A DNA stretch of 64,000 nucleotides from Peribolospora baueri (lineage: Eukaryota): assembly GCA_029717555.1 (NCBI GenBank), contig JAMDHS010000014.1, positions 248,001-312,000 on the forward strand, in the 5' to 3' direction. The position numbers and the translations under genes were made by a program. Positions within the stretch are counted from its first letter, which is position 1. Each line of letters begins with the position of its first letter. Of the stretch, positions 39,996 to 56,452 are shown one piece after another. The notes below the pieces were generated by a model. That model was not told where the DNA came from, made no database searches, and saw nothing but the letters and a program-made list of their open reading frames with translations.

Positions 39996-41344
39996 AGCGC
40001 TCGTTCTTCCTCGCCTACCCTTCCCTTTAAACCATCATCCTTTAAACCGCGAAAGGTGTGAAGTTGCTCGCCAGATTTAACGTCGCGTTTTCTTTGTGGA
40101 GGCTTGCTTTTTAAACTGGATGAATAAATGAGAACCTCGACTCGCCCTGGCGTGTGTCGTGTGTCGTGCGTCGGAGGCGAACGCGAAACGATTTTCACCA
40201 TGGAAGAATACAGGACTCGAGCGGGGCATAATTGACCGCCTCGGTGGCCGTGGCTCACCGCGTGGCTCACCTAACCGCCCAATGATTGGTTCACGAAACC
40301 TGGAGTGCGTCTTGCATAACTGTGGAAAGCAGGAAGCGTGAGCTAAACAGCATATAGCGTAGTTACCCAGTAGTTACCCAGGTGACCGTCGCTTCCACCA
40401 GTGTGTCTCCTTGAAATATTTGGAATAAAAAACAAAAGATGTAAACGTACCTGTTCGCGGGTAGTGTACTTCAGGATGGGGACGTGCGAGAACAGGGCGA
40501 ATGTACTACTGATGCGTTTAGGGAGGGACGTTGTCATTCGCAGAGAGGGCACCTTAGGCTTCCAGAATGTGCCCATCCCAGAGCGTTGAAACGAGGTCGT
40601 CCGGCGAGGCAAAGTTGCTCGTCAAGCGCCCGTCACGGTCGCGAAAGAAGGACGCGCTTAGAATTGCGACGCGGCGGACTAGACGAGGTGGCCTTCCACA
40701 CCGGCGTTCAGGTATGTGAACGACGTCGGACAGCAGCACCCAATCATTTACTTCAAAGGGGAAGGGGGAACCATTTCGCATAAGCAAGACCGCTATAGAC
40801 GAGTCCAACATGGCCAATCGATGCGAACCACAGTCTTGGCGATCAACGTCGTGCAGTACGCTGGCTAGTCGTCCTATCAACGTGTGTATAACTGGGTGCG
40901 CTTCAGCCGGCAATCGCGGGGAGGACTATACTGGGCGGAGAGGACTACACTGGACGGGGAAGACTTGATATATCCGAATCGCTTCCATAGTCGGCATAGT
41001 AGGGAGGCCTGCAAGGCCGGCTGAAACAGGTGCATCGTGCTGCGTCATCTAAAATGTCTCCCAATGGCCACCGTCGAGTTTATGCTCGGTCAGACTGGAT
41101 GGCTCTTTCAATACCGACCCGCACATTTTCAGACACAGCTGCCTGTGAACCATCTGTCAGGGCATGTCTATCATACGGTACTCGTCCCATCTATCTTTCA
41201 CATCAATCGACGGGACTTTCCTTCCCTGTGCCCCCGGTTAAGGGTTGATGTGCTTGGGGATGGAAATCCGTTGGCAATCTTAAGGAAACGGTGGCGTCAG
41301 CGCTCGGCTCCACATCTATAGTCAAGGGTTCACACAGACACTCA

Positions 41345-42331
41345 CTAGTTCACGCCGAAAAGCATCCAAAGATTGTCAGACCGTTTGCGGTAGGCCATGT
41401 CGATGTCGGCCAAGTCGACAGCGCGGCGGGAAGCGTTCGCGGCTTTGTCTGCCGCATAGCCAAGACCCGCGATAGCACCCACGGCTCCTATCGCGGCACC
41501 CCCAAACCTCCAATGCTCCTTATTCAAGTCGTCCTGGAGTTGTTGTTGCTTTCCGTTATTTACGGGGTTAGGAGGGGCAGGCCCCGGGTTGGATTCCCCG
41601 AAGGGCCGCGAGAAGTTCGGGACAGCCCTTAGGAGTACCTGTCTTTGGCATGGCGCAAAGGGACGGAGCAACGTCAGTGACTTGGGGGGACCCTTCAGAG
41701 CACGAGATGGTCCAAGAGCTGGCGCTTACCGTCTTGAAGTCGTTCGCATCCCTACGCATGTTGTACCCCTCGTCCCGGGCCATATTGTCGCGAAGCTGCA
41801 TGTACTCGTCGTCGGCCCGTTTGGTGCTATTGCCCTGCGGGTGATGAGCAAGGGAGTAAATTCCGGCAATACCGGCTCCAACCGCCGTTGCGCCGGCAAC
41901 TCCGGTAAGGGCCGACCCGGCTATTGACCATTTGTTCACGTATTCTTTGGTGAGTTCTTTGGATGCTCTCGAGTCGAGCGAGTCGAGACCGCGGCGGGAC
42001 GCGTTGTTGGATTTGACCGCCTGGTCCGCCGCGAAGTAGAGAGCCGTGCCACCGGCTCCGACAGCGGCCACTCTGCCAGCAAAACGGAGCTGGTTCCCGT
42101 GGAGCTCCGATTTGAGCTTGGCTTGATCAAAACCAGAGCGGACGTCCAACGTGCGAGCTACGAGACCGCCATCGAGCTGGACCTGTGACGTCCGAAATAC
42201 CAAAGTCAGCAGGGGCGCATGAGGACGTTTACCGGTCGGTAAGGGCCACTCACTTGGGCAGGGACGGGAGCTGCAGAAGCCACGCTGGCGGCGAGGGCCA
42301 GGAGAGAGGGGATGACACGAGCAAACAACAT
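41345..42331 (-). CDS. Secreted Kex2-type repeat precursor with three Gly/Ala-rich hydrophobic peptides (274 aa, 3 exons)
   Basis: Exons 42331-42254, 42182-41730 and 41638-41345 are joined by phase-0 GT..AG introns of 71 and 91 nt with CTGAC branch points. Signal peptide MLFARVIPSLLALAASVASA-AP; repeats end in N-x-S/T-RR/KR. Confidence 0.8.
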
Positions 42332-45300
42332 GCTTTACCGAGTAGATGGATCACTGGCGATGTTGTGAGAGAATGTGGGGAGTGAAAATACAACCTGAAC
42401 CTGCAGGTGTAAGGGAGAACAATAAGGGAAAAGAAGAGTGGACCTGAACCGGCAGGAAAGAAACAGAGGGGGAGGACTTGTTGGGGGTGAGACACAGAGA
42501 AGAGAGCTTTTTCGCCGCTCGAGATGGGCGGTATTTAACTTTTTGGCGATCGCTCCACACGGCCGGTCGGAACGGCGATCCGACGTCAACGATCGCAAGT
42601 CGCAGTCACTGGCGAACATCTGGAGGCGCCAACCATATATCGGTGCAGGAGATATAACGCCAAGGGTTGGGCGCAGGCGCCAGCCAAGACGGGAACTCGG
42701 CTCGAAGAGTTGCATGACTGTGGACAGCGACGACCTGGAAGCAAGATGGAGTGAATTTCACCGTCTGGCGGCGGGGGAGGGGTGAGTCCGCGCCTACGGG
42801 AGAAAATAGCCCCACCTTGGTCGAGGACAAGGCGAAAAAAAAAGGTAATTTAGTGCTTGCGGGCGTCGTCTGTCTCGCCGCCGCTGGTCAGACACGTTGT
42901 CGTTCCTTTTTTTGCGTCCCCTTCCATCGACGTCGGCCACTCCTGTGGACGCGATTGCTTGCTGCGGCGCACGTGCATCGGGAATTTGTCGTTTCTCCCG
43001 ATCGCCCAATTACGGAGCGCCGAACGATCATCTCTGGGCGGATCACTCCGCACGTGTGCACGGATAACCACGACCGCGAAAGCTGCGACGTCGGTCGGAC
43101 CTTTCAGCACACGATCGAGCACACGAACTAGGTTTATTCGCGCAGGGGAGTGCGGCCGGCTCGCCTGGGGTTCGGGCAGATTCAGTCGACAAAACCAGCA
43201 AAGGATGGACGGCTCTACCAGGTTCTCCTTGTCGCGCCCTAGGGGTGCAAAGACGGGAGTGTCTACACGCCACAAGAGAAATGTTGCGATCTCCATCGAT
43301 CATACGGCTCGTGGTGGTTTGCGCGAGTCCTCACGGACAGGCGATACGAACGTGACAGCGGCAGTCAGTCAGAGCTCAGCTCAAGCTCTCCACTTATCGC
43401 AGCGTTCATCACGTCCGCGACATGGAGACGCAGATTTTCAGCCGGCAAAATAAAATTTCCACGCCCGGATTTCGGCAAGCAACCACCTACGATGAATAAA
43501 TAATCCGGTCAGGTTGGCGCAATAACTCCCACCGCCTCTTTTCCCTCAATCCCACACACCTATTCCTCAACCTTCTCCCTCCGACATCGTAATTACTCGC
43601 CTCTCGTTCTTTTAAATTATCTACGGCTCTCCCCCTCAAACCTGTCGTTCCATTTTACTAAAGTAAACTGCCTGCTTCCTCCGCATGAATGGCTCATTTT
43701 TTTTTCGAGGCCGAATGCTTTAGCCGTTCCCACCGGAGCGATCGACGATAGCGCTGAGGCACGGCGACTGTCAATCGTCCTAGATAATTTACTCGCTGAC
43801 TTTCATCTTTCTTGGACGAGCGCGAGAGTGGAGTCGACCGTCGAAGCGAGGAGGGAATGAAGGTGCGATGGGAGAGCCACGCTCAGAGGCAGCGAAGGGA
43901 GCCGAGAGACATGGCCGCTAAGGTCTTCAGAGGAAGGGGACGGAGAGGACGACACACCGGCCTCTCCACGCCCATTTCTTGACACACCGAGGCTGGCGGG
44001 CACGAGCACGAGCGCTGTCAAGCGCAGGTCATGAGTGGTGCAATAGGCACACACCGTCTGCCTTGTCCTTTGCCTGCCTTCCTCCTTCCTCACGTCGGCC
44101 ACGATAGGAATGAGCGCCCGATCAGCTTCTTCCTACGTCCACCGAGCCGAGGAGGAGAACGGAAGCCGAGGTTCAGATGCGGGGAGGAAAATAAAGGCGT
44201 AGGGGAGGGAGAGGTTCGTCCCAACCAGTTATGTCTTGTAGATCGGTGAGAACCATGGCGCGACGGCTACAGCAACTCGGACAGAATTCAGGGCGGCGCC
44301 GCAAGAAAGAGGGAACGCCCTTGCGCCCTCTGTACTATATAACCTCGGAACGGGGGTCGATTCCAAGCCAGACGCGCGTCGCGGAAGCTCGAGCCGAGCG
44401 GCCGAGCCTGGAACGGGGGATTCCAGAATGGACTGGTCGCAGCGGGATGGAGGAGGCCGCAATGGCAATCACGTCGAGCGAGGGGGCAGGGCACCTTGGG
44501 ATCGCGCTCGCCGCAATGGAGATCGGGTTGCCGCAATGGAGATCGACGCGCTGCGATCACGAACAGGCTGGCTGGCACCGCTCTGTTGAAATCTAACCAC
44601 CATTATTCTGTCATTCGAAAAGGTTCCCGATATGGGAGGCTCTGCAAATGTCCTTGGCGAACGATCAAGCTCTCTCACGTTGTCCATAAATATGGCGGCG
44701 AGACTGCAGCGCAAGCTGGCACCCATCGAGGCCCGCCATGGAGCCTCTGCAACTTGCTGGAAGGCGAAATCTTCGCAATATTGTGTTGCTCTCCCACTAT
44801 AGCCCATGTACTTGCCCGAACTATGCAGCACTTTTGCACATTGGCCACCGCGTTCCTTCCAAGCCTCGATAGAGCGGCGCTGGTCACGATTCGATCGGAG
44901 GCCCCCTGGCTGCTTCCTTGGACTGTTGTTGGGAAAGCCTGGTGGACCGAAGAGTACAAACGGTATGCGAGGAGATAAGGGTAAGTAGGTGAAACAATAG
45001 CAGGACGTTGACTACTCTTGTTCGGTGCTTTCTGTCAAATTGGCGCATTCGCTGTGTTCCCCCATACAGGCCAGCAGCTTCCCCTGGTGCGCCTACTTAT
45101 CAGTGTGCTGCACCTCTGACAGTGTGCGAAATCGCCGCCGCATCTGGGGATGTATCCGTCAGTTGATGCAGACTGCACAACAGCACAGCTTGATCGAATC
45201 ATAATGGTGCACAGCCAAGGTGCTGGACAAAGCTTTCGAACTTGGTTAACTGACGGGGACGGAGATACGTCGCCTGTTGCATCTCTTTTTCGAAGTTGTT

Positions 45301-46485
45301 TTGGGCTTCGAATGCATCCTGCAGCATGGGAAAAAGAAATTGAACAAAAAGGTAAGACGCCATGCAGTTTCCCTTGTATGAGAGCTTGTTAATTGTAGCT
45401 CGGGGCAACAGCATTGTCTATCACGTCTTCTAGGATAAAAGGACCATACTCGGTTGAATATCATGGTAGCGTTTCCCACTCTTAAAGGACTTTCGAAACA
45501 GACAGGAAACTTCTTCGCGTTTGTGACAGCCCCGTGTGGCTTCGCGATCCCAAGGCGATGCCAGCGCGACGACGAGCCGCAACTCGAATCGGATAACCGA
45601 GTGGAGCTAAGCCGATAGGTGTTGGACAGGAAGCAGAGGGAGAAACGGACAAAGGGTGGCCGAACAATGGTGAGTCGGCGTCGCAGATGGTGGCGAGGAC
45701 AAAGGAAGGCGGGCGCCTTTGTGCCCGGCGCACTGTCAGGTCTGGGCAGCAGATGCTCGAGGTTGTTAACATTTCGTCAGACCAATACCCTGCGCACGGT
45801 GAGAAAAAGTGTACCAGACCTCCTAAGTCAAACAACATGTGCGTACGGAATGCAAGCGAAGAAAGGTGGCCGATTATTATCTTGTCACCAAGCGTGACAT
45901 TCCGGACTTTGTCACACCTTGGAGTTGCGAATCGAAGGCGTGAATGACCATTGCCAGTCGCAAATGTCGACCATCCCCAAGCCGAGGAGTGTGACGGGCT
46001 AGGGTCCTGCAAAGATGGCCTCGCCGTCTTGAAGGAGAGGCGGCAGACCCACTTAAATAACCGGAGGCGTACCTGTAAGCTATAAAGCGTACCCACCCGC
46101 ACGACGACGTGCAATCGTAGGACGATTCCTCAACACCGGGACTACCTTCATAACATGCGCAAATTTCTTTGGATCATGCTGTGTCGAAAGTCCATACTGT
46201 GCAGTTAGGGTTAGGGTAATCAGACTGCTCAGTACACGGTACGCGCCGCGCCCACCGTCGGCCCTTGCCTGGTCGGCCGGGGCCGATCATCCATCTCCTA
46301 TCTCCCTGAAGGCGCCGATCCAACGCGTCCTATTTCTCATTTCTCCCTCGGATACCCACTATTTATTCGGCGGTGGTTCTACCCACGGGCCCTGAGTGTC
46401 TCACCGTGTCTGCTTCCTGCGTTGAGCGGACAAGAAAGCGTGGCCTCCGAGGGCAAAGCTCCGACGCCGCGAAGGACGGCCAACG

Positions 46486-48955
46486 ATGGCCGGGATCGCA
46501 AAGACGCCACGCCCTCCGCTCGCGCCCCTGGGCCCACCGGCGCCTAGTGCACCTGCCATTGGCGCGCTGCTGGCTTCGGGTTATGTTTCGCCGCAACTTC
46601 GTCGCAGCTCTCCTCGGTGGACCTGCACCACTCACGCTTTTCCTGCTGCCACCCCTCGCAGGCTCTGGGACGGCCCTCCTGCGACGGCGCAGGGCGGTCC
46701 ATTGGCTGAGAAGGATTTTCCGGCCGTCGTCTACCCCCTCCCAGTGCCAACGCCGGGCGCTCGGTCCACCGCCGCCATGCTCGCCGTCAATAGGTATCTG
46801 CACCGGTCCCAGAAGTCGAGCGATGATGTCCGTGCCTCTGCCGGGATCTTAACCGTGGTCATGGTGCATGGCAACGGCTTTTGCAAAGAGGTGCGCCGGT
46901 CGTCGTAAGAGCGAGCCAGCAGCCACGGAGCTGCGTGGGGCGCACGTATTACCCGCTTCAACTATGCCTGACTTTCCTTTGCGTTTTTGTCTTCTTGGCT
47001 CCTGTCCGTCAGATGTGGGAGCCCACTATCGGCTCTCTGCTGGATGGCCTTGATGCGAGCAGCCGGCGGCCGAAGGCGGTCGAAGTCTGGGCTTTCGACT
47101 TGTTCGACCAAGCGGACAGCGCCGTCTGGCGCGTGCCATTACAGGAGAGAGGATACAACGGTCTGTCTATACTACTCCTTTGCCCCCGCTTTATTATCCC
47201 TATCGTGTTCCTCGCCCCCTTCTTCCTTAGACCTCTTCCACCTCGCCTCCCCGGGCGGCCCGGTCCCTTTCGGCGGCCCCTGACCGTGTGCAGTTTCCGT
47301 CTCCTTTCTGAACTGCCTGTTGCAGGCGATGCAGGTGATTACGCAAGGGATCTGATTCAGTTCGTCCGCTCTTTCCTTCCTCGGCCATCGGACGGAAGCG
47401 CCCCGCCCTACTTGCTGCCCCGCTGCGAGGAGGAGAACGCGCAGCTGGCGACAACCTTGACTGTTGTCGGTCACTCCATCGGGGCCCAGGCTGTGTGAGT
47501 CCAACCCTCTGCAAGATCCCCACGTCGAGTGCATGAGGACCGCCAAGAGCGTTCAGCTTAAGGCCGCGGCGTCTTTCCTCTTCTCTCCGCCGCCTCCCTC
47601 CGTCCTCTCCCTCCCTTCGCGCGGGAGCTCAGTCTGTTGGCCGCACAGTCCTGCCCCGATCTGTTTCCCCGGATCGTCGTCATTGAGCCCGTTGTCGTAC
47701 GGCCCGAGTCTGCGGAGCGCACTAGGCAGAGGTTGCCTCTGGTCCGTTCCTCCCTTGCTAGGAAGGACAGGTGGAAGGACAGGTAGGCATCCTAGGGTTA
47801 GATGGCGCGCCTTTGACGGGAGGGAAAGGACGCTTGCCTCTGCGCCCCCTAACGTCACCGTCGCCGGGTCCTTTTTCGCTAGGTCCGCTGCCAAACGGTT
47901 TCTCGACGACAATGTGTTCAGCAAGAGCTGGACAAAAGAGGTCAAGGACCTGTTCGTAGTGAGCATATGCTTTCCCCCTTTTCCTGCGATAAGGGACCTT
48001 CCAATGATGGATGCCCTTTCGAGCTTCTGACGTCGTCGATGATTGCCCTCCGGTTCTCCGCGAGCAGCGGTACGCCCTTCGCCCTTTGCCTGATGGCTCG
48101 GTGATGACCAAAACAAGCAAGATCGTGGAGACGGTGAGTTGCCGGCCTTTCTCCACTGGCGACAAAGGCTTCTGCCTGCGACGTCTCGGAGGTCGGCGTG
48201 GATCAGTCTCTGAACGTTTTTGTTTTTTTTTGTGCCCGGCGGCAACCGCCCTGTTCATGGGCCGCGTCCTCTCCATTTCAAAGAGGTTGTACTGCGATTG
48301 GAACACTGCCGTGCTGGCGGCCATCCACCTTCCTAGCCTCTGTCCGTCCTGCCCTATCCTATGGGTTTACCCTGCTCGCCCGCTCATGACGTAAGGGCGA
48401 AGAGACGCGGGACGAACCCCCGTTTGCTATATCTCTGACAGAATCCGGGCAAGGCGAAAAACGTGCGCGTTGGGGCTGACCACGTCCATATCCGCGTCGC
48501 CTCTCTTCCTTTCCGTTCTTTCTTGGCCCTCTCTGCCGGCCGAAATCACGGGACCAGGTTGATGCCAGACCTAGAAAAGATATTCGATCAGATTCCCCAC
48601 TGTGAGCGCCAGCAGCTCCAAGGCGGACATTGCGTGAGCCTTTCGGTTTCTTTGTCCGCCGGCCCGCCTATCCGTCGGAGACGGTCTCACTCCAAGCCAT
48701 GCCTCCCATTGCGATGGGCCCCCCTCGGAGACAGATCCCCTTCGAGGTTCCCGAGCTGCTCGGTGAGTGCGAGACGAGCGAAGGAACGGGCGAAGCGGCT
48801 GTGATGGGTTGTGTTGTCATGTTGGAGCCCCGCACCTCTCGAGTCTGAATGCGTGCGCTCTCCGGCATCGCGCATCCTACATCTGCGTCTCAGGCAAGCG
48901 TATTGCCCAGTTCATACAGGCAGGACCTGTCACGTCGCGGCCTTCTAACCTTTGA
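46486..48955 (+). CDS. Alpha/beta hydrolase (Abhydrolase_6, Lpx1-like) with PTS1-like C-terminus
   Basis: HGNGFCKEMWEP, EVWAFD, nucleophile elbow VGHSIGA, catalytic His in GGHCIPFEVP; last exon ends SRPSNL*. Confidence 0.82.
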
Positions 48956-50450
48956 ATGCTCCCTACAATGGACGATTCCTTCCCGAAGCTCTCGGAACGT
49001 TCCTCGCTGTAAAATCGCATCTGACCGTTAAGGATTGTCTTACAATTGTAGAATTGTCAATGTTTCGTTGGTATCGCACGGGGCGGCGCGGGGGGGGAGC
49101 ACCGCCTCGCCGTGCGCCCAGCGGACGAAGGGCCGAGATGGCGCGGAAGGAGACTGAAAGTTGCCTGCGGGCGGGGGGTGGCGATCGTAAGGGAGTTAGC
49201 GGCGGCAAAGGGAGACGGGTGGCTTTTCGTAAGGTTCGCGTGTACGGAGCTCGGTACGGAAGCACCCGTCGGCCAGCTTCGCCATTCGAGTTTCGCCGGC
49301 CCGGCCGGTCCGACGCTCCCCTGTCCCTGCGGCGACGCCATGCACGCTTTTCCCGTCCGTCACTGCCCTACACTCTGCTGTCGGGCGCGCCTCGCGAGGA
49401 CGGATCTAGTTGTGCTCGCGCTCTTCCTGCGCCGAGCCAGTCCTCGTTGCCCAGCGCAAAGGGACGTCAGGTTATGAATTTGGGAAAGAATTTCGTGAGC
49501 GGACCAAAGGAAAATGAATACACGCAGGAGCAGGCATGCCAGGTGCCCCACGTCGCCCCTACATAGATAGGCGGGAGCAGCGAGGGGGACCGGAAGATCG
49601 AAATCTCGAGGCGGCTCTATTCGCGCGTTCGCTAGAGGGCAAGATTCCCCGCTCCTCTTTTCCGGATGGGTGAGGCCTCTATGGACCCGAGAACGAGGGG
49701 CTCGATTCCTTGAAGCGGACGCAAGCGAGCACGTTTCGCCAGCGACCTGGGCACCTCGTCCGATCCGGACGTGCGTAAATCCAACTCACCGCCTTACCTC
49801 GTCCCGTTCGCACGTGAGGCTCGTGTAAAAAGAGTTGGCGTGCTGCAATTGTCGTTTGGTGGCCGCGTGCATTTGCCTCTACCGCGGCATCTCCAATCAC
49901 ATGCCCCCGGTGATCCGCGCTCCGCGTCACCATGCTCCAGCGATCCCGCAGACATGTTATCGATTCCGCGACAATCGCGTCGGTGCTGGCGCTTCTTTCA
50001 CCGCGGACAAGATCCTCTCCGAAGCTCGAAACTCCTTTCTTTTCACCGCAAGGATGTCTAATCGCCCGTGGCCGTCCCGGTGCGATGCGATGGTGGCGCG
50101 ACCAAAAACGGAAAAGAAAGGGGAACAGTTATAAAGCTCTTAGCAGGCGGACGCAGGTCGCAGGACGGACATGCGATACATTAGACGGGAAGAGGAGCCA
50201 TCCGGCGGGCGAGGGACCGCCAGCAAGGCGCAGCAGCGGGCCGTAAGGGGCCGGCGGAGAAGAGCAGGAAAGACAGACAGGGGGTGGTCGGAGAGATGAA
50301 AAAACGTAAAAAAGGGAAAAAGGCCGTCGAAAGGACAAAAAAAGAAAAGAAGGGCAAAAAAAAGGCTGGGGTATTGAAGGTGAAATAAATAGGTATGGAA
50401 GATAATAGAATGCCGCAGTCAAGCGGCCAGGACGGGATGTGCGTTCACGC

Positions 50451-54915: not shown

Positions 54916-56452
54916 ATGTCGTCAGGAGGCGTCATCGATCTCGGACAGGGGTATCACATCCCAGCCGACCCCGACACGTTGAAATATGAGGTCGAGGTGT
55001 TCCGGCACACGCTCATCGCCATCTATGCCTTGCTCGCATGGGAGCACATTGTCACCGCCCACGAAGAGATCTACCGGTGGAAGCAGCTCTTCAGGGGCGA
55101 GTTCGTCCCCATCAACATTTTCTTGCTCGTCGGGAGATACTGCGTAGAAGGCACGGCCATCACATCGGCCATCCTGTTCTTCGGTCAGCCGACCAGCTGT
55201 CAGGGGGTCTACACGAGCATCTACGTGCTGTACGCCATCGCGTGGGTGGGTGCCGCACCGCCGTGGAGCAACGACGGAAAGTGGAGGAGAATTTCTTTCT
55301 CCTCCTCGGGGGAAAGAAGCGCGGTCCATGAAAGCGGTGTCCGGGCGCTTTGGCTGACGTCTTTCTTTTGTCTCCTCCCGTTTCCTTCCTTGGCCGTTCC
55401 CGTTTCAGACGGCGCTGGCCTGCATTTTCACCCTCCGTATCAAAGCCATTTGTCGCGACGACCGTCGTTACTGGTGGACCATGGCTATTCTGACCTTCCT
55501 GGGCTCCGGTCTCTGGATCGCCTCGATCCCTGGCTTCAAAGCCGAGAATTTGCCGGCGGAGATGCGGTTTCGGTACTACCCCATCTGCATGCCTGTGCCC
55601 TCCCCTCAGTGGCGCGCGATGGGTTGGGCCGCGGGGTCGATCTACGACATCATCCTCGTTTTGATCACCGTCTATCACGTCGTCTTCGAGATGCCCGGCC
55701 ACTTCAACCGAAGCCTCAAGCGCTTCCTCTTCGACACATCCATCATGTACTTTGCCATCTCCCTCTCCTGCAACGTTGTCTGCCTCTTCGTTGAACTCTG
55801 CAATAAGGACATCATCTTCCAGGCTCTTCCAGTTCCCATCGCCCTCGCCTTCAACATGATCGTCGGCGCACGCATCGTCTTCCATTCTGAGCTCTGGAGC
55901 GAGGGCAAGAACGCGTTGCTCGTCATCGACCCTCGCCGGCGGGCCGGTCGCCACCTGCCCCCGCGTTCCTTCATGGGGCTCGGTGGCAGCGCCATGTACA
56001 ATCACGACTCCCCGTCGGGCACCTACGACGATCAAGGCCACCGAGTCGACGACGAACCGCCTTTCGCCAACCTCGCCTGGGTGAGGAAGAACACCTTCAC
56101 CTTTGGTAAGGAGGGTGCCGCGAAGCGAGACGCGTACGGGGCGCCCATGCGCGGCAAGCACGCTCACGGCGACAACAAGTCGGCGCGCTCACGTCCGTCT
56201 TGCAACGACCCCGACGTGCCGCTCGCTCGCCTGCAGCCGGCCTACGTCACCCCCTCCACGGCCTCAGAAAGAGCCGCCTCAATCGGCTCGACCTATTCTC
56301 CCGAAGACGAGTCCCTCCCAAGCCGCCCCGCCGGCGACCAGAAGCTCATGGAGATCCTCACCGAAGTCCGTGTCGCCCGCGAGACCCGCGATAATAGTGC
56401 GGAGGGCCGATCCGACCGGCGAGCGGACAGGACGTTCCTCCCAGACATGTAA
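54916..56452 (+). CDS. Multi-pass membrane protein, DUF6533/GPCR-like, 2 exons
   Basis: LLAWEHIVTAHEEIYRW...IFLLVGRY, intron 55246-55408, FTLRIKAI, YDIILVLITVY, LFDTSIMYF; about seven hydrophobic segments followed by a disordered tail. Confidence 0.72.

Follow-up and report, generated by a model that had tools for sequence, protein, structure and literature searches.

A two-intron, lineage-restricted gene of Peribolospora baueri may encode a secreted precursor of three hydrophobic, glycosylated peptides

We describe a gene on the minus strand, between positions 42331 and 41345, of a 64,000-nucleotide (nt) stretch of Peribolospora baueri DNA (contig JAMDHS010000014.1, positions 248,001 to 312,000). 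The whole stretch is referred to as the window. An earlier interpretation, made from the letters alone and called here the sequence-only reading, proposed a hidden secreted polyprotein of three glycine-zipper hydrophobic peptides. That observation is confirmed and its interpretation is partly supported. Judged from its sequence, the gene is real, spliced, lineage-restricted and fungal, and it probably evolves rapidly. With moderate confidence, we read its product as a Kex2-processed repeat protein (KEP), made as a secretory pre-pro-protein, which would be processed into three hydrophobic, probably glycosylated peptides. The gene model, and the layout of the predicted protein, are as follows.

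42331..42254, minus strand: exon 1, 26 codons from the ATG
42253..42183, minus strand: intron 1, 71 nt, phase 0, GTGAGT...GCTGAC...CAG
42182..41730, minus strand: exon 2 (P0003), 151 codons; encodes the pro-region (containing LVAR and LDVR), unit 1, a spacer of 8 residues, unit 2, and another spacer that is acidic and contains KR and RR
41991..42137, minus strand: unit 1, residues 42-90, terminus NASRR
41817..41966, minus strand: unit 2, residues 99-148, terminus NSTKR
41729..41639, minus strand: intron 2, 91 nt, phase 0, GTAAGC...CACTGAC...ACAG
41638..41345, minus strand: exon 3 (P0002), 97 codons and TAG; encodes a linker rich in Pro and Asn, then unit 3, and a C-terminal tail that contains RKR
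41423..41557, minus strand: unit 3, residues 205-249, terminus NASRR

Both strands were read and the exons were translated separately. Joining exons 1 to 3 gives a product of 274 amino acids (aa) with a single terminal stop. Hence, the proposal of a 274-aa protein, assembled by removal of two canonical phase-0 introns, is borne out exon by exon. Each intron has a fungal consensus donor (GTGAGT or GTAAGC), a CTGAC branch site and a CAG acceptor. Note that the position of the start codon is fixed, because an in-frame TAA lies two codons 5' of the ATG. Both introns are needed, since the frame of exon 1 runs into a stop if intron 1 is read through, the frame of exon 2 has no Met upstream of units 1 and 2, and unit 3 is in a different reading frame from unit 2. 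The intron lengths, of 71 (3n+2) and 91 (3n+1) nt, supply the frame shifts required. A weaker alternative acceptor, AAG, is found 4 nt upstream of the intron 2 acceptor. Use of this site would keep the exon 2 frame and lose unit 3. The GC content at third codon positions is 0.67 for the gene, compared to 0.67-0.78 for three long open reading frames (ORFs) of the window.

Exon 1 reads as a signal peptide, as had been claimed. The call is by rule of thumb: there is a basic n-region (Arg5), a 12-residue hydrophobic core, and Ala-Ser-Ala followed by Ala-Pro. The remainder of the protein is dominated by the three units, which have 49, 50 and 45 residues and occupy about 50% of the 274 aa. The stretches originally quoted for them map to residues 49-90, 99-148 and 211-249. 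Each unit comprises a charged head, an aromatic residue, a Gly/Ala-rich core with small-xxx-small spacing, a Tyr, and a tail matching N-x-S/T-[KR]-R. In a three-way MAFFT alignment, conservation across all units is seen at E/D-L (head), the aromatic position, A-x-G-A (core), Tyr and N-x-S/T-[KR]-R (tail). Units 2 and 3 are 33% and 51% identical to unit 1, respectively. Local alignment of units 1 and 3 has a score of 71, against a shuffle mean of 25 (z 8.7), which none of 500 shuffles matched. Furthermore, duplication of their tails can be seen in the DNA, where 41400-41453 and 41969-42021 are 76% alike over 54 nt. Units 1 and 3 are thus, by their sequences, clearly homologous. The resemblance of unit 2 to either is weak (z of about 3, with 6 of 500 shuffles in each case). 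Hence, the claim of three homologous units that end in dibasic sites stands, with unit 2 as the distant member. No paralogue was found elsewhere inside the window with blastn or tblastn.

The putative peptides share several physical properties. There is no cysteine in the entire 274-aa protein and the predicted net charge of the peptides is near neutral (0 to +2). The small-xxx-small runs span 15-28 residues. Hydrophobicity of the three cores is low, with Kyte-Doolittle maxima (19-residue windows) of 0.84, 1.46 and 1.18; the core of unit 2 is both the longest and the most hydrophobic. The core of unit 1 contains an Arg. In a hydrophobic-moment analysis, the heads did not stand out as strongly amphipathic.

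We compared motif counts with those in 5000 shuffles. The arrangement N-x-S/T-[KR]-R, in which an N-glycosylation sequon directly precedes a dibasic site, closes all three units. This point was absent from the sequence-only reading. Three copies were reached by none of the 5000 shuffles; the copies are homologous and, hence, not independent. Translating the 64-kb window in all six frames revealed no other place where a hydrophobic run of small residues leads into N-x-S/T-[KR]R. Enrichment is seen for small-xxx-small spacing (36 against 25.8 expected, reached by 7 shuffles) but not for strict G-xxx-G (2 against 2.7 expected). Therefore, 'glycine-zipper-like' describes the cores better than 'glycine zipper' does.

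The candidate cleavage sites quoted in the sequence-only reading (LVAR, LDVR, LDSR, VLLR, RR and RKR) can all be found in the protein. Dibasic sites close the units at RR90, KR148 and RR249, and the fragments between dibasic sites have 70, 58, 22, 79, 14 and 11 residues. The spacers hold L/V/M-x-x-R sites; for instance, the 8-residue spacer between units 1 and 2 terminates in Leu-Asp-Ser-Arg. Cleavage at the L-x-x-R sites would release units 1 and 2 as peptides of 49 and 50 residues. Such sites, originally termed 'LxxR-like', match the extended Kex2 motif described in fungal effectors (PMC8528282).

The overall architecture agrees with published descriptions of KEPs, in keeping with the comparison to Kex2-cleaved precursors in the sequence-only reading. 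One definition asks that a protein carry a signal peptide plus three or more repeats, interrupted by KR, RR or KK, and that these repeats occupy at least 15% of its length (Le Marquer et al. 2019, PMC6339444). Here, the signal peptide is recognised by rule of thumb, the three repeats are set apart by RR90, KR148 and RR249, and about half of the protein is repeat. A second definition specifies repeats of 8-100 aa, between Kex2 sites, with an identity score above 0.6 (PMC7329392; Umemura 2020). The fragments described above, of 11-79 residues, are within that size range, and identity between units is 33-51% compared to the score of 0.6.

The sequence features are consistent with the following pathway. 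The signal peptide would direct the protein into the endoplasmic reticulum, where the N-x-S/T sequon at the end of each unit would be glycosylated. In the Golgi, kexin would then cleave behind the terminal RR or KR of every unit, and probably also behind aliphatic-x-x-Arg in the short spacers. Basic residues left behind would be removed by Kex1. The predicted outcome is release of three cysteine-free peptides, of about 45-70 residues, each with a polar head, then a small-xxx-small helix rich in Gly and Ala, and lastly a short polar tail bearing a glycan. By analogy with known systems, we infer that released peptides would most likely act at an interface. This could be assembly at the wall or hyphal surface, as for the repellents of Ustilago, or membrane insertion, as for candidalysin.

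We also compared the locus (41000-42700) with four DNA runs from one study. Runs X1 and X2 derive from one organism (A), and runs X3 and X4 derive from a related organism (B). Between X1 and the window there are 7 differences in 621 nt, all of which fall in exon 2. Six are non-synonymous and one is synonymous; none generates a stop or a frameshift. The locus is syntenic with a 12.7-kb contig of organism B, whose likeness to the window is distributed as listed here.

41116-41249: 3' flank, about 84%
41325-41432: end of the gene, about 91%
42144-42700: start of exon 2, intron 1, exon 1 and 5' flank, about 92%

Between these pieces, the body of the gene (41433-42143) is less than 80% alike in organism B, except for a 19-nt exact match at 41805-41823. 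The piece at 42144-42700 has 11 gap letters, made up of 5 single-base insertions in intron 1 and 6 letters in the 5' flank. None of these gap letters is in exon 1 or the start of exon 2. At least 7 substitutions are also located in intron 1, among the 13 of 43 substitutions listed for this piece. The spacing of the matched pieces departs from that of the window by +189 nt and then by -160 nt, which suggests that the repeat region is rearranged in organism B. Taken together, the alignments suggest that evolution has respected the structure of the gene, while the predicted mature part changes fast.

Two side observations concern the same runs. First, the stretch 41646-41769 (124 nt; the end of exon 2 and most of intron 2) recurs, with 0-2 differences, at a second locus seen in the runs from A as well as B. 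The likeness extends more loosely to about 41616. At 41646 and 41769, the loose ends beyond the 124-nt stretch are identical across X1-X4. In the frame of the gene, the second locus has an Ala-rich open stretch upstream and a similar exon 3 start downstream. These features suggest that the second copy is a conserved paralogue, perhaps with gene conversion into the gene studied here. The organism B orthologue is about 160 nt shorter in this region. In addition, 41425-41694 and 42298-42555 each occur in two versions in X1 and X2, at about half the depth of the intervening stretch. In each pair, one version agrees fully with the window, and the second departs from it by 16 differences over 164 nt, or by 3 differences and a gap. 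The sample behind X1 and X2 may be heterozygous, dikaryotic, or in possession of a close duplicate.

Database searches agree with the earlier statement that the family is not a recognised one. With Pfam hmmscan, at E values up to 10, the two exon products matched ABA_WDS alone (E 0.11, 13.4 bits against a cut-off of 25). No Pfam glycine-zipper family was matched by either product at E values up to 10, in a search where HMMER filters drop most matches above about 0.1. Nothing relevant was found in NCBIfam, where ATP synthase subunit c (E 0.15) was far below its cut-off, and a sequence search of the PDB, with E up to 10, gave no matches. When exon 2 was used in two word-seeded searches of 5.8 billion clusters, none of the 5057 and none of the 319 candidates scored. 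A HMMER pass over 1.84 billion representative proteins returned two matches, P0004 and P0005. Overall, no annotated orthologue was found among about 15 billion database proteins.

We rejected three candidates. The 736-aa protein P0005 is a compositional match; it is a Pro/Thr/Ser-rich repeat protein without this architecture. The best Protein Atlas score (0.80), for phage 'hypothetical' clusters, was at noise level. A metagenome match (L001, 3001-3132) consists of an 11-residue word in the wrong frame, opposite a 464-aa ORF that we take to encode a pyridoxal-phosphate-dependent enzyme, on a GC-rich and bacterial-looking contig. This match is attributable to chance. Note that L001 illustrates how short-pattern scans can mislead with low-complexity queries.

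The sole meaningful match in the 1.84 billion representatives, P0004, is a hypothetical protein of Artomyces pyxidatus (phmmer E 3.7e-6, summed over 5 near-identical repeats). It has relatives in the same species (P0007 and P0008) and in Auriscalpium vulgare (P0006). The available data suggest that P0004, P0007 and P0008 are probably encoded on one 172-kb (172,273 nt) contig. All four of these Russulales proteins have a signal peptide and 3-6 zipper units that are closed by KR or RR. Within each unit, the acidic head leads into a Gly-rich zipper and a Leu/Phe-Asp-His-Phe motif, after which come a tail rich in Ser and the KR or RR. Most units are followed by a 9-residue spacer ending in Leu-x-Ala/Ser-Arg.

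The window protein resembles this family in layout. Both have a signal peptide ending in Ala-x-Ala followed by Ala-Pro, and then repeats of an acidic head, a Gly-rich zipper, an aromatic residue or His, a polar Ser/Asn tail, KR or RR, and a short L-x-x-R spacer. At the level of sequence, BLASTP finds 29-37% identity over 45-52 residues. A hidden Markov model of the Russulales unit scored 16.8 bits on the window protein. Among 3000 shuffles of each kind, the full score was reached by none of the global and 1 of the local-composition ones, and the best-domain score by 2 of the local ones. With hhalign, the probability for the window protein and the Russulales family was 25%, over 15 columns. The shared layout may reflect either homology or convergence. 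Two further observations concern the Russulales proteins themselves. P0006 and P0007 have an additional second type of repeat at the N-terminus (F-I/V-L-P-P/D...), also closed by KR or RR. P0004 matches the Pfam CAP12/Pycsar TIR family (36.1 bits against a cut-off of 24.7); this lies in the Gly/Ala-rich repeat and looks like a compositional artefact.

Several observations weigh against processing of the window protein into peptides with an activity. Dibasic [KR]R sites are modestly enriched (5 against 2.2 expected, 289 of 5000 shuffles) and the same is true of aliphatic-x-x-Arg sites (6 against 3.6 expected, 612 of 5000 shuffles). Hence, the case for processing rests on the position of the sites and not their number. 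Two of the L-x-x-R sites carry Asp at P3, which is unfavourable for the extended Kex2 motif (PMC8528282). The spacers are long, uneven and unlike those of compact classical KEPs; 34 residues separate RR 169-170 from unit 3 (residue 205). There are three units only, unit 2 is weakly similar (33%), and the identity-based detector of PMC7329392 might miss the protein. The near-neutral charge of the peptides makes classical cationic antimicrobial action unlikely. In exon 2, the ratio of 6 non-synonymous differences in 7, between X1 and the window, gives no sign of purifying selection. Finally, a single-sequence AlphaFold2 model of exon 2 contains three long helices, at low confidence (predicted local distance difference test score 62.9), and is compatible with an uncleaved helical protein. 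Such a protein would be secreted or wall-bound, glycosylated and all-helical, with three Gly/Ala-rich helices packed together or lying at a surface, and its dibasic sites would be left unused. We regard this as unlikely, but as the main alternative. The weak dibasic enrichment, the three degenerate repeats and the uneven linkers all suit it. In addition, kexin might be obstructed by a glycan located five residues ahead of each cleavage point. Conversely, RR or KR occurs at the same position after every unit, directly behind the polar tail, and each is followed by a short acidic spacer ending in aliphatic-x-x-Arg. The same layout is evident in the Russulales proteins. Moreover, the protein lacks cysteine and has no recognisable fold or domain.

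The three segments might instead be glycine-zipper transmembrane helices, following a cleaved signal peptide, in an integral membrane protein. Small-xxx-small runs of 15-28 residues, and the weak NCBIfam likeness to ATP synthase subunit c, would fit with this. However, the Kyte-Doolittle maxima are low, estimated insertion energies sum to +2.9 to +5.7 kcal/mol, and the unit 1 core is interrupted by an Arg. An alternating topology would also place one sequon and dibasic tail on the cytosolic side. The recurrence of a sequon and dibasic tail after all three segments would fit with every segment facing the lumen, rather than alternating across the membrane. A polytopic membrane protein is, therefore, quite improbable, because the cores are weakly hydrophobic and the same luminal-type tail follows all three. 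Non-functional DNA, either a chance open frame in a GC-rich region or a decaying copy, is improbable too. The absence of an annotated orthologue among about 15 billion proteins, the predominance of non-synonymous differences within the species, and a coding body less than 80% alike in organism B, when the flanks are 84-92% alike, could all be expected of such DNA. Yet three homologous units, in two frames, are joined exactly by consensus introns. The start codon, signal peptide and stop are intact, and none of the 7 differences makes a stop or frameshift. Insertions and deletions in organism B avoid the comparable parts of the exons, and the third-position GC content is within the range of the three long ORFs. 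A precursor of a ustiloxin-type peptide that is made on the ribosome and modified after translation (RiPP), giving a modified cyclic product, would share the signal peptide and the layout of repeats with Kex2 sites, which are common to such precursors (PMC7329392). In the same source, 22% of KEPs have a DUF3328/UstYa gene nearby, at a mean distance of 3.09 genes. We found no Pfam match to DUF3328/UstYa in 91 of the 111 ORFs of at least 110 aa between 28 and 56 kb, or in 14 ORFs scanned separately, some of them outside this interval; short or intron-split genes could escape such a scan. The units, at 45-50 residues, also have no short conserved core and no cysteine. Because no DUF3328 gene is present among the ORFs scanned, we consider a RiPP precursor very improbable indeed.

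The KEP-type pre-pro-protein remains the reading that we favour. A bolder version of it would be an undescribed family of kexin-released, helical, small-xxx-small glyco-peptides that self-assemble in membranes or the wall, as pore-formers or functional amyloid. The mature part would evolve fast behind a conserved promoter, as in precursors of toxins and antimicrobial peptides, and the solution would be shared with, or reinvented in, Russulales. We put this forward as a speculation that is more doubtful than not by a wide measure. We found no literature that ties glycine zippers, or GxxxG, to Kex2-released fungal peptides or candidalysin.

The gene is surrounded by ordinary core genes. Those identified with Pfam are as follows.

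About 28.0-29.7 kb: SSRP1/Pob3-type histone chaperone
33.06-37.86 kb: Cdc25-type RasGEF with SH3 domain
38.68-39.5 kb: mitochondrial porin
50.45-52.0 kb: MFS transporter

Upstream of the gene, the interval 42400-50400 (about 8 kb) has no Pfam-recognisable ORF of at least 110 aa on either strand. This interval may hold small or intron-rich genes. Further away, a plus strand ORF (54916-55794) weakly resembles DUF6533, with 19.7 bits (E 9e-4) against a cut-off of 24.1; DUF6533 is mostly found in basidiomycetes, so the match gives a faint taxonomic hint. A 19-nt tandem repeat, of 2.6 copies, lies at 40916-40965, about 380 nt downstream of the stop codon.

The suggestion of a possible new system was an overstatement, since orphan KEPs are common. 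PMC7329392 describes 7878 KEPs, of which 2560 are stand-alone types without homologues. The gene looks like one more orphan member of this known and very diverse kind. Orphan KEPs are known in thousands, most without a deletion phenotype, and several KEP genes deleted in Coprinopsis gave none (PMC9769878). Thus, another example is unsurprising in itself. What is less usual here is the long, neutral, small-xxx-small type of peptide, the sequon before each predicted cleavage site, and a layout held in common with uncharacterised Russulales proteins. If the peptides are made, the few KEP products whose physical role is known (repellents and candidalysin) would be joined by a long, hydrophobic and probably glycosylated type. 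Note also that genes which depend on two short introns, and are absent from about 15 billion database proteins, escape surveys for peptide precursors in annotated proteomes.

Comparison with known systems places the predicted protein as follows. Pfam glycine-zipper domains occur in bacterial outer-membrane lipoproteins. They resemble the units in having hydrophobic helices with small-xxx-small spacing and differ in that their profiles find no match here. With KEPs as a class, the window protein shares lineage restriction and the large proportion of sequence occupied by repeats. It differs in having three degenerate repeats (33-51% identity) with long uneven spacers, and in the long, hydrophobic, Gly/Ala-rich nature of units that place a sequon just before the dibasic site. 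Six motif words of 5-7 letters, from the window protein and P0004, are absent from the portions of the supplementary text of both KEP surveys that were available (89,120 and 732,332 characters), which is weak evidence given that this text is partial. Cleavage of Ustilago maydis Rep1 at Kex2 sites yields 10 peptides (34-53 aa), which assemble as amyloid fibrils on hyphae and the wall (PMC3133707). Rep1 is also a secreted pre-pro-protein, and units 1 and 2 (49 and 50 residues if the L-x-x-R sites are used) are within the size range of its peptides. The likeness noted is one of layout and size; Rep1 has 12 repeats compared to 3 here. Ece1 of Candida albicans has 271 aa and seven KR sites, and is processed by Kex2 and then Kex1 to free a hydrophobic helical peptide that damages membranes (PMC5784256). 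No homology to Ece1 or candidalysin was detected. The two precursors both have a signal peptide and are almost equal in length (271 and 274 aa). However, the peptides released from Ece1 do not form a set of homologous repeats, and one alone is the toxin. That toxin, candidalysin, is 31 aa long with a basic tail, whereas the units described here are longer, near neutral and probably glycosylated.

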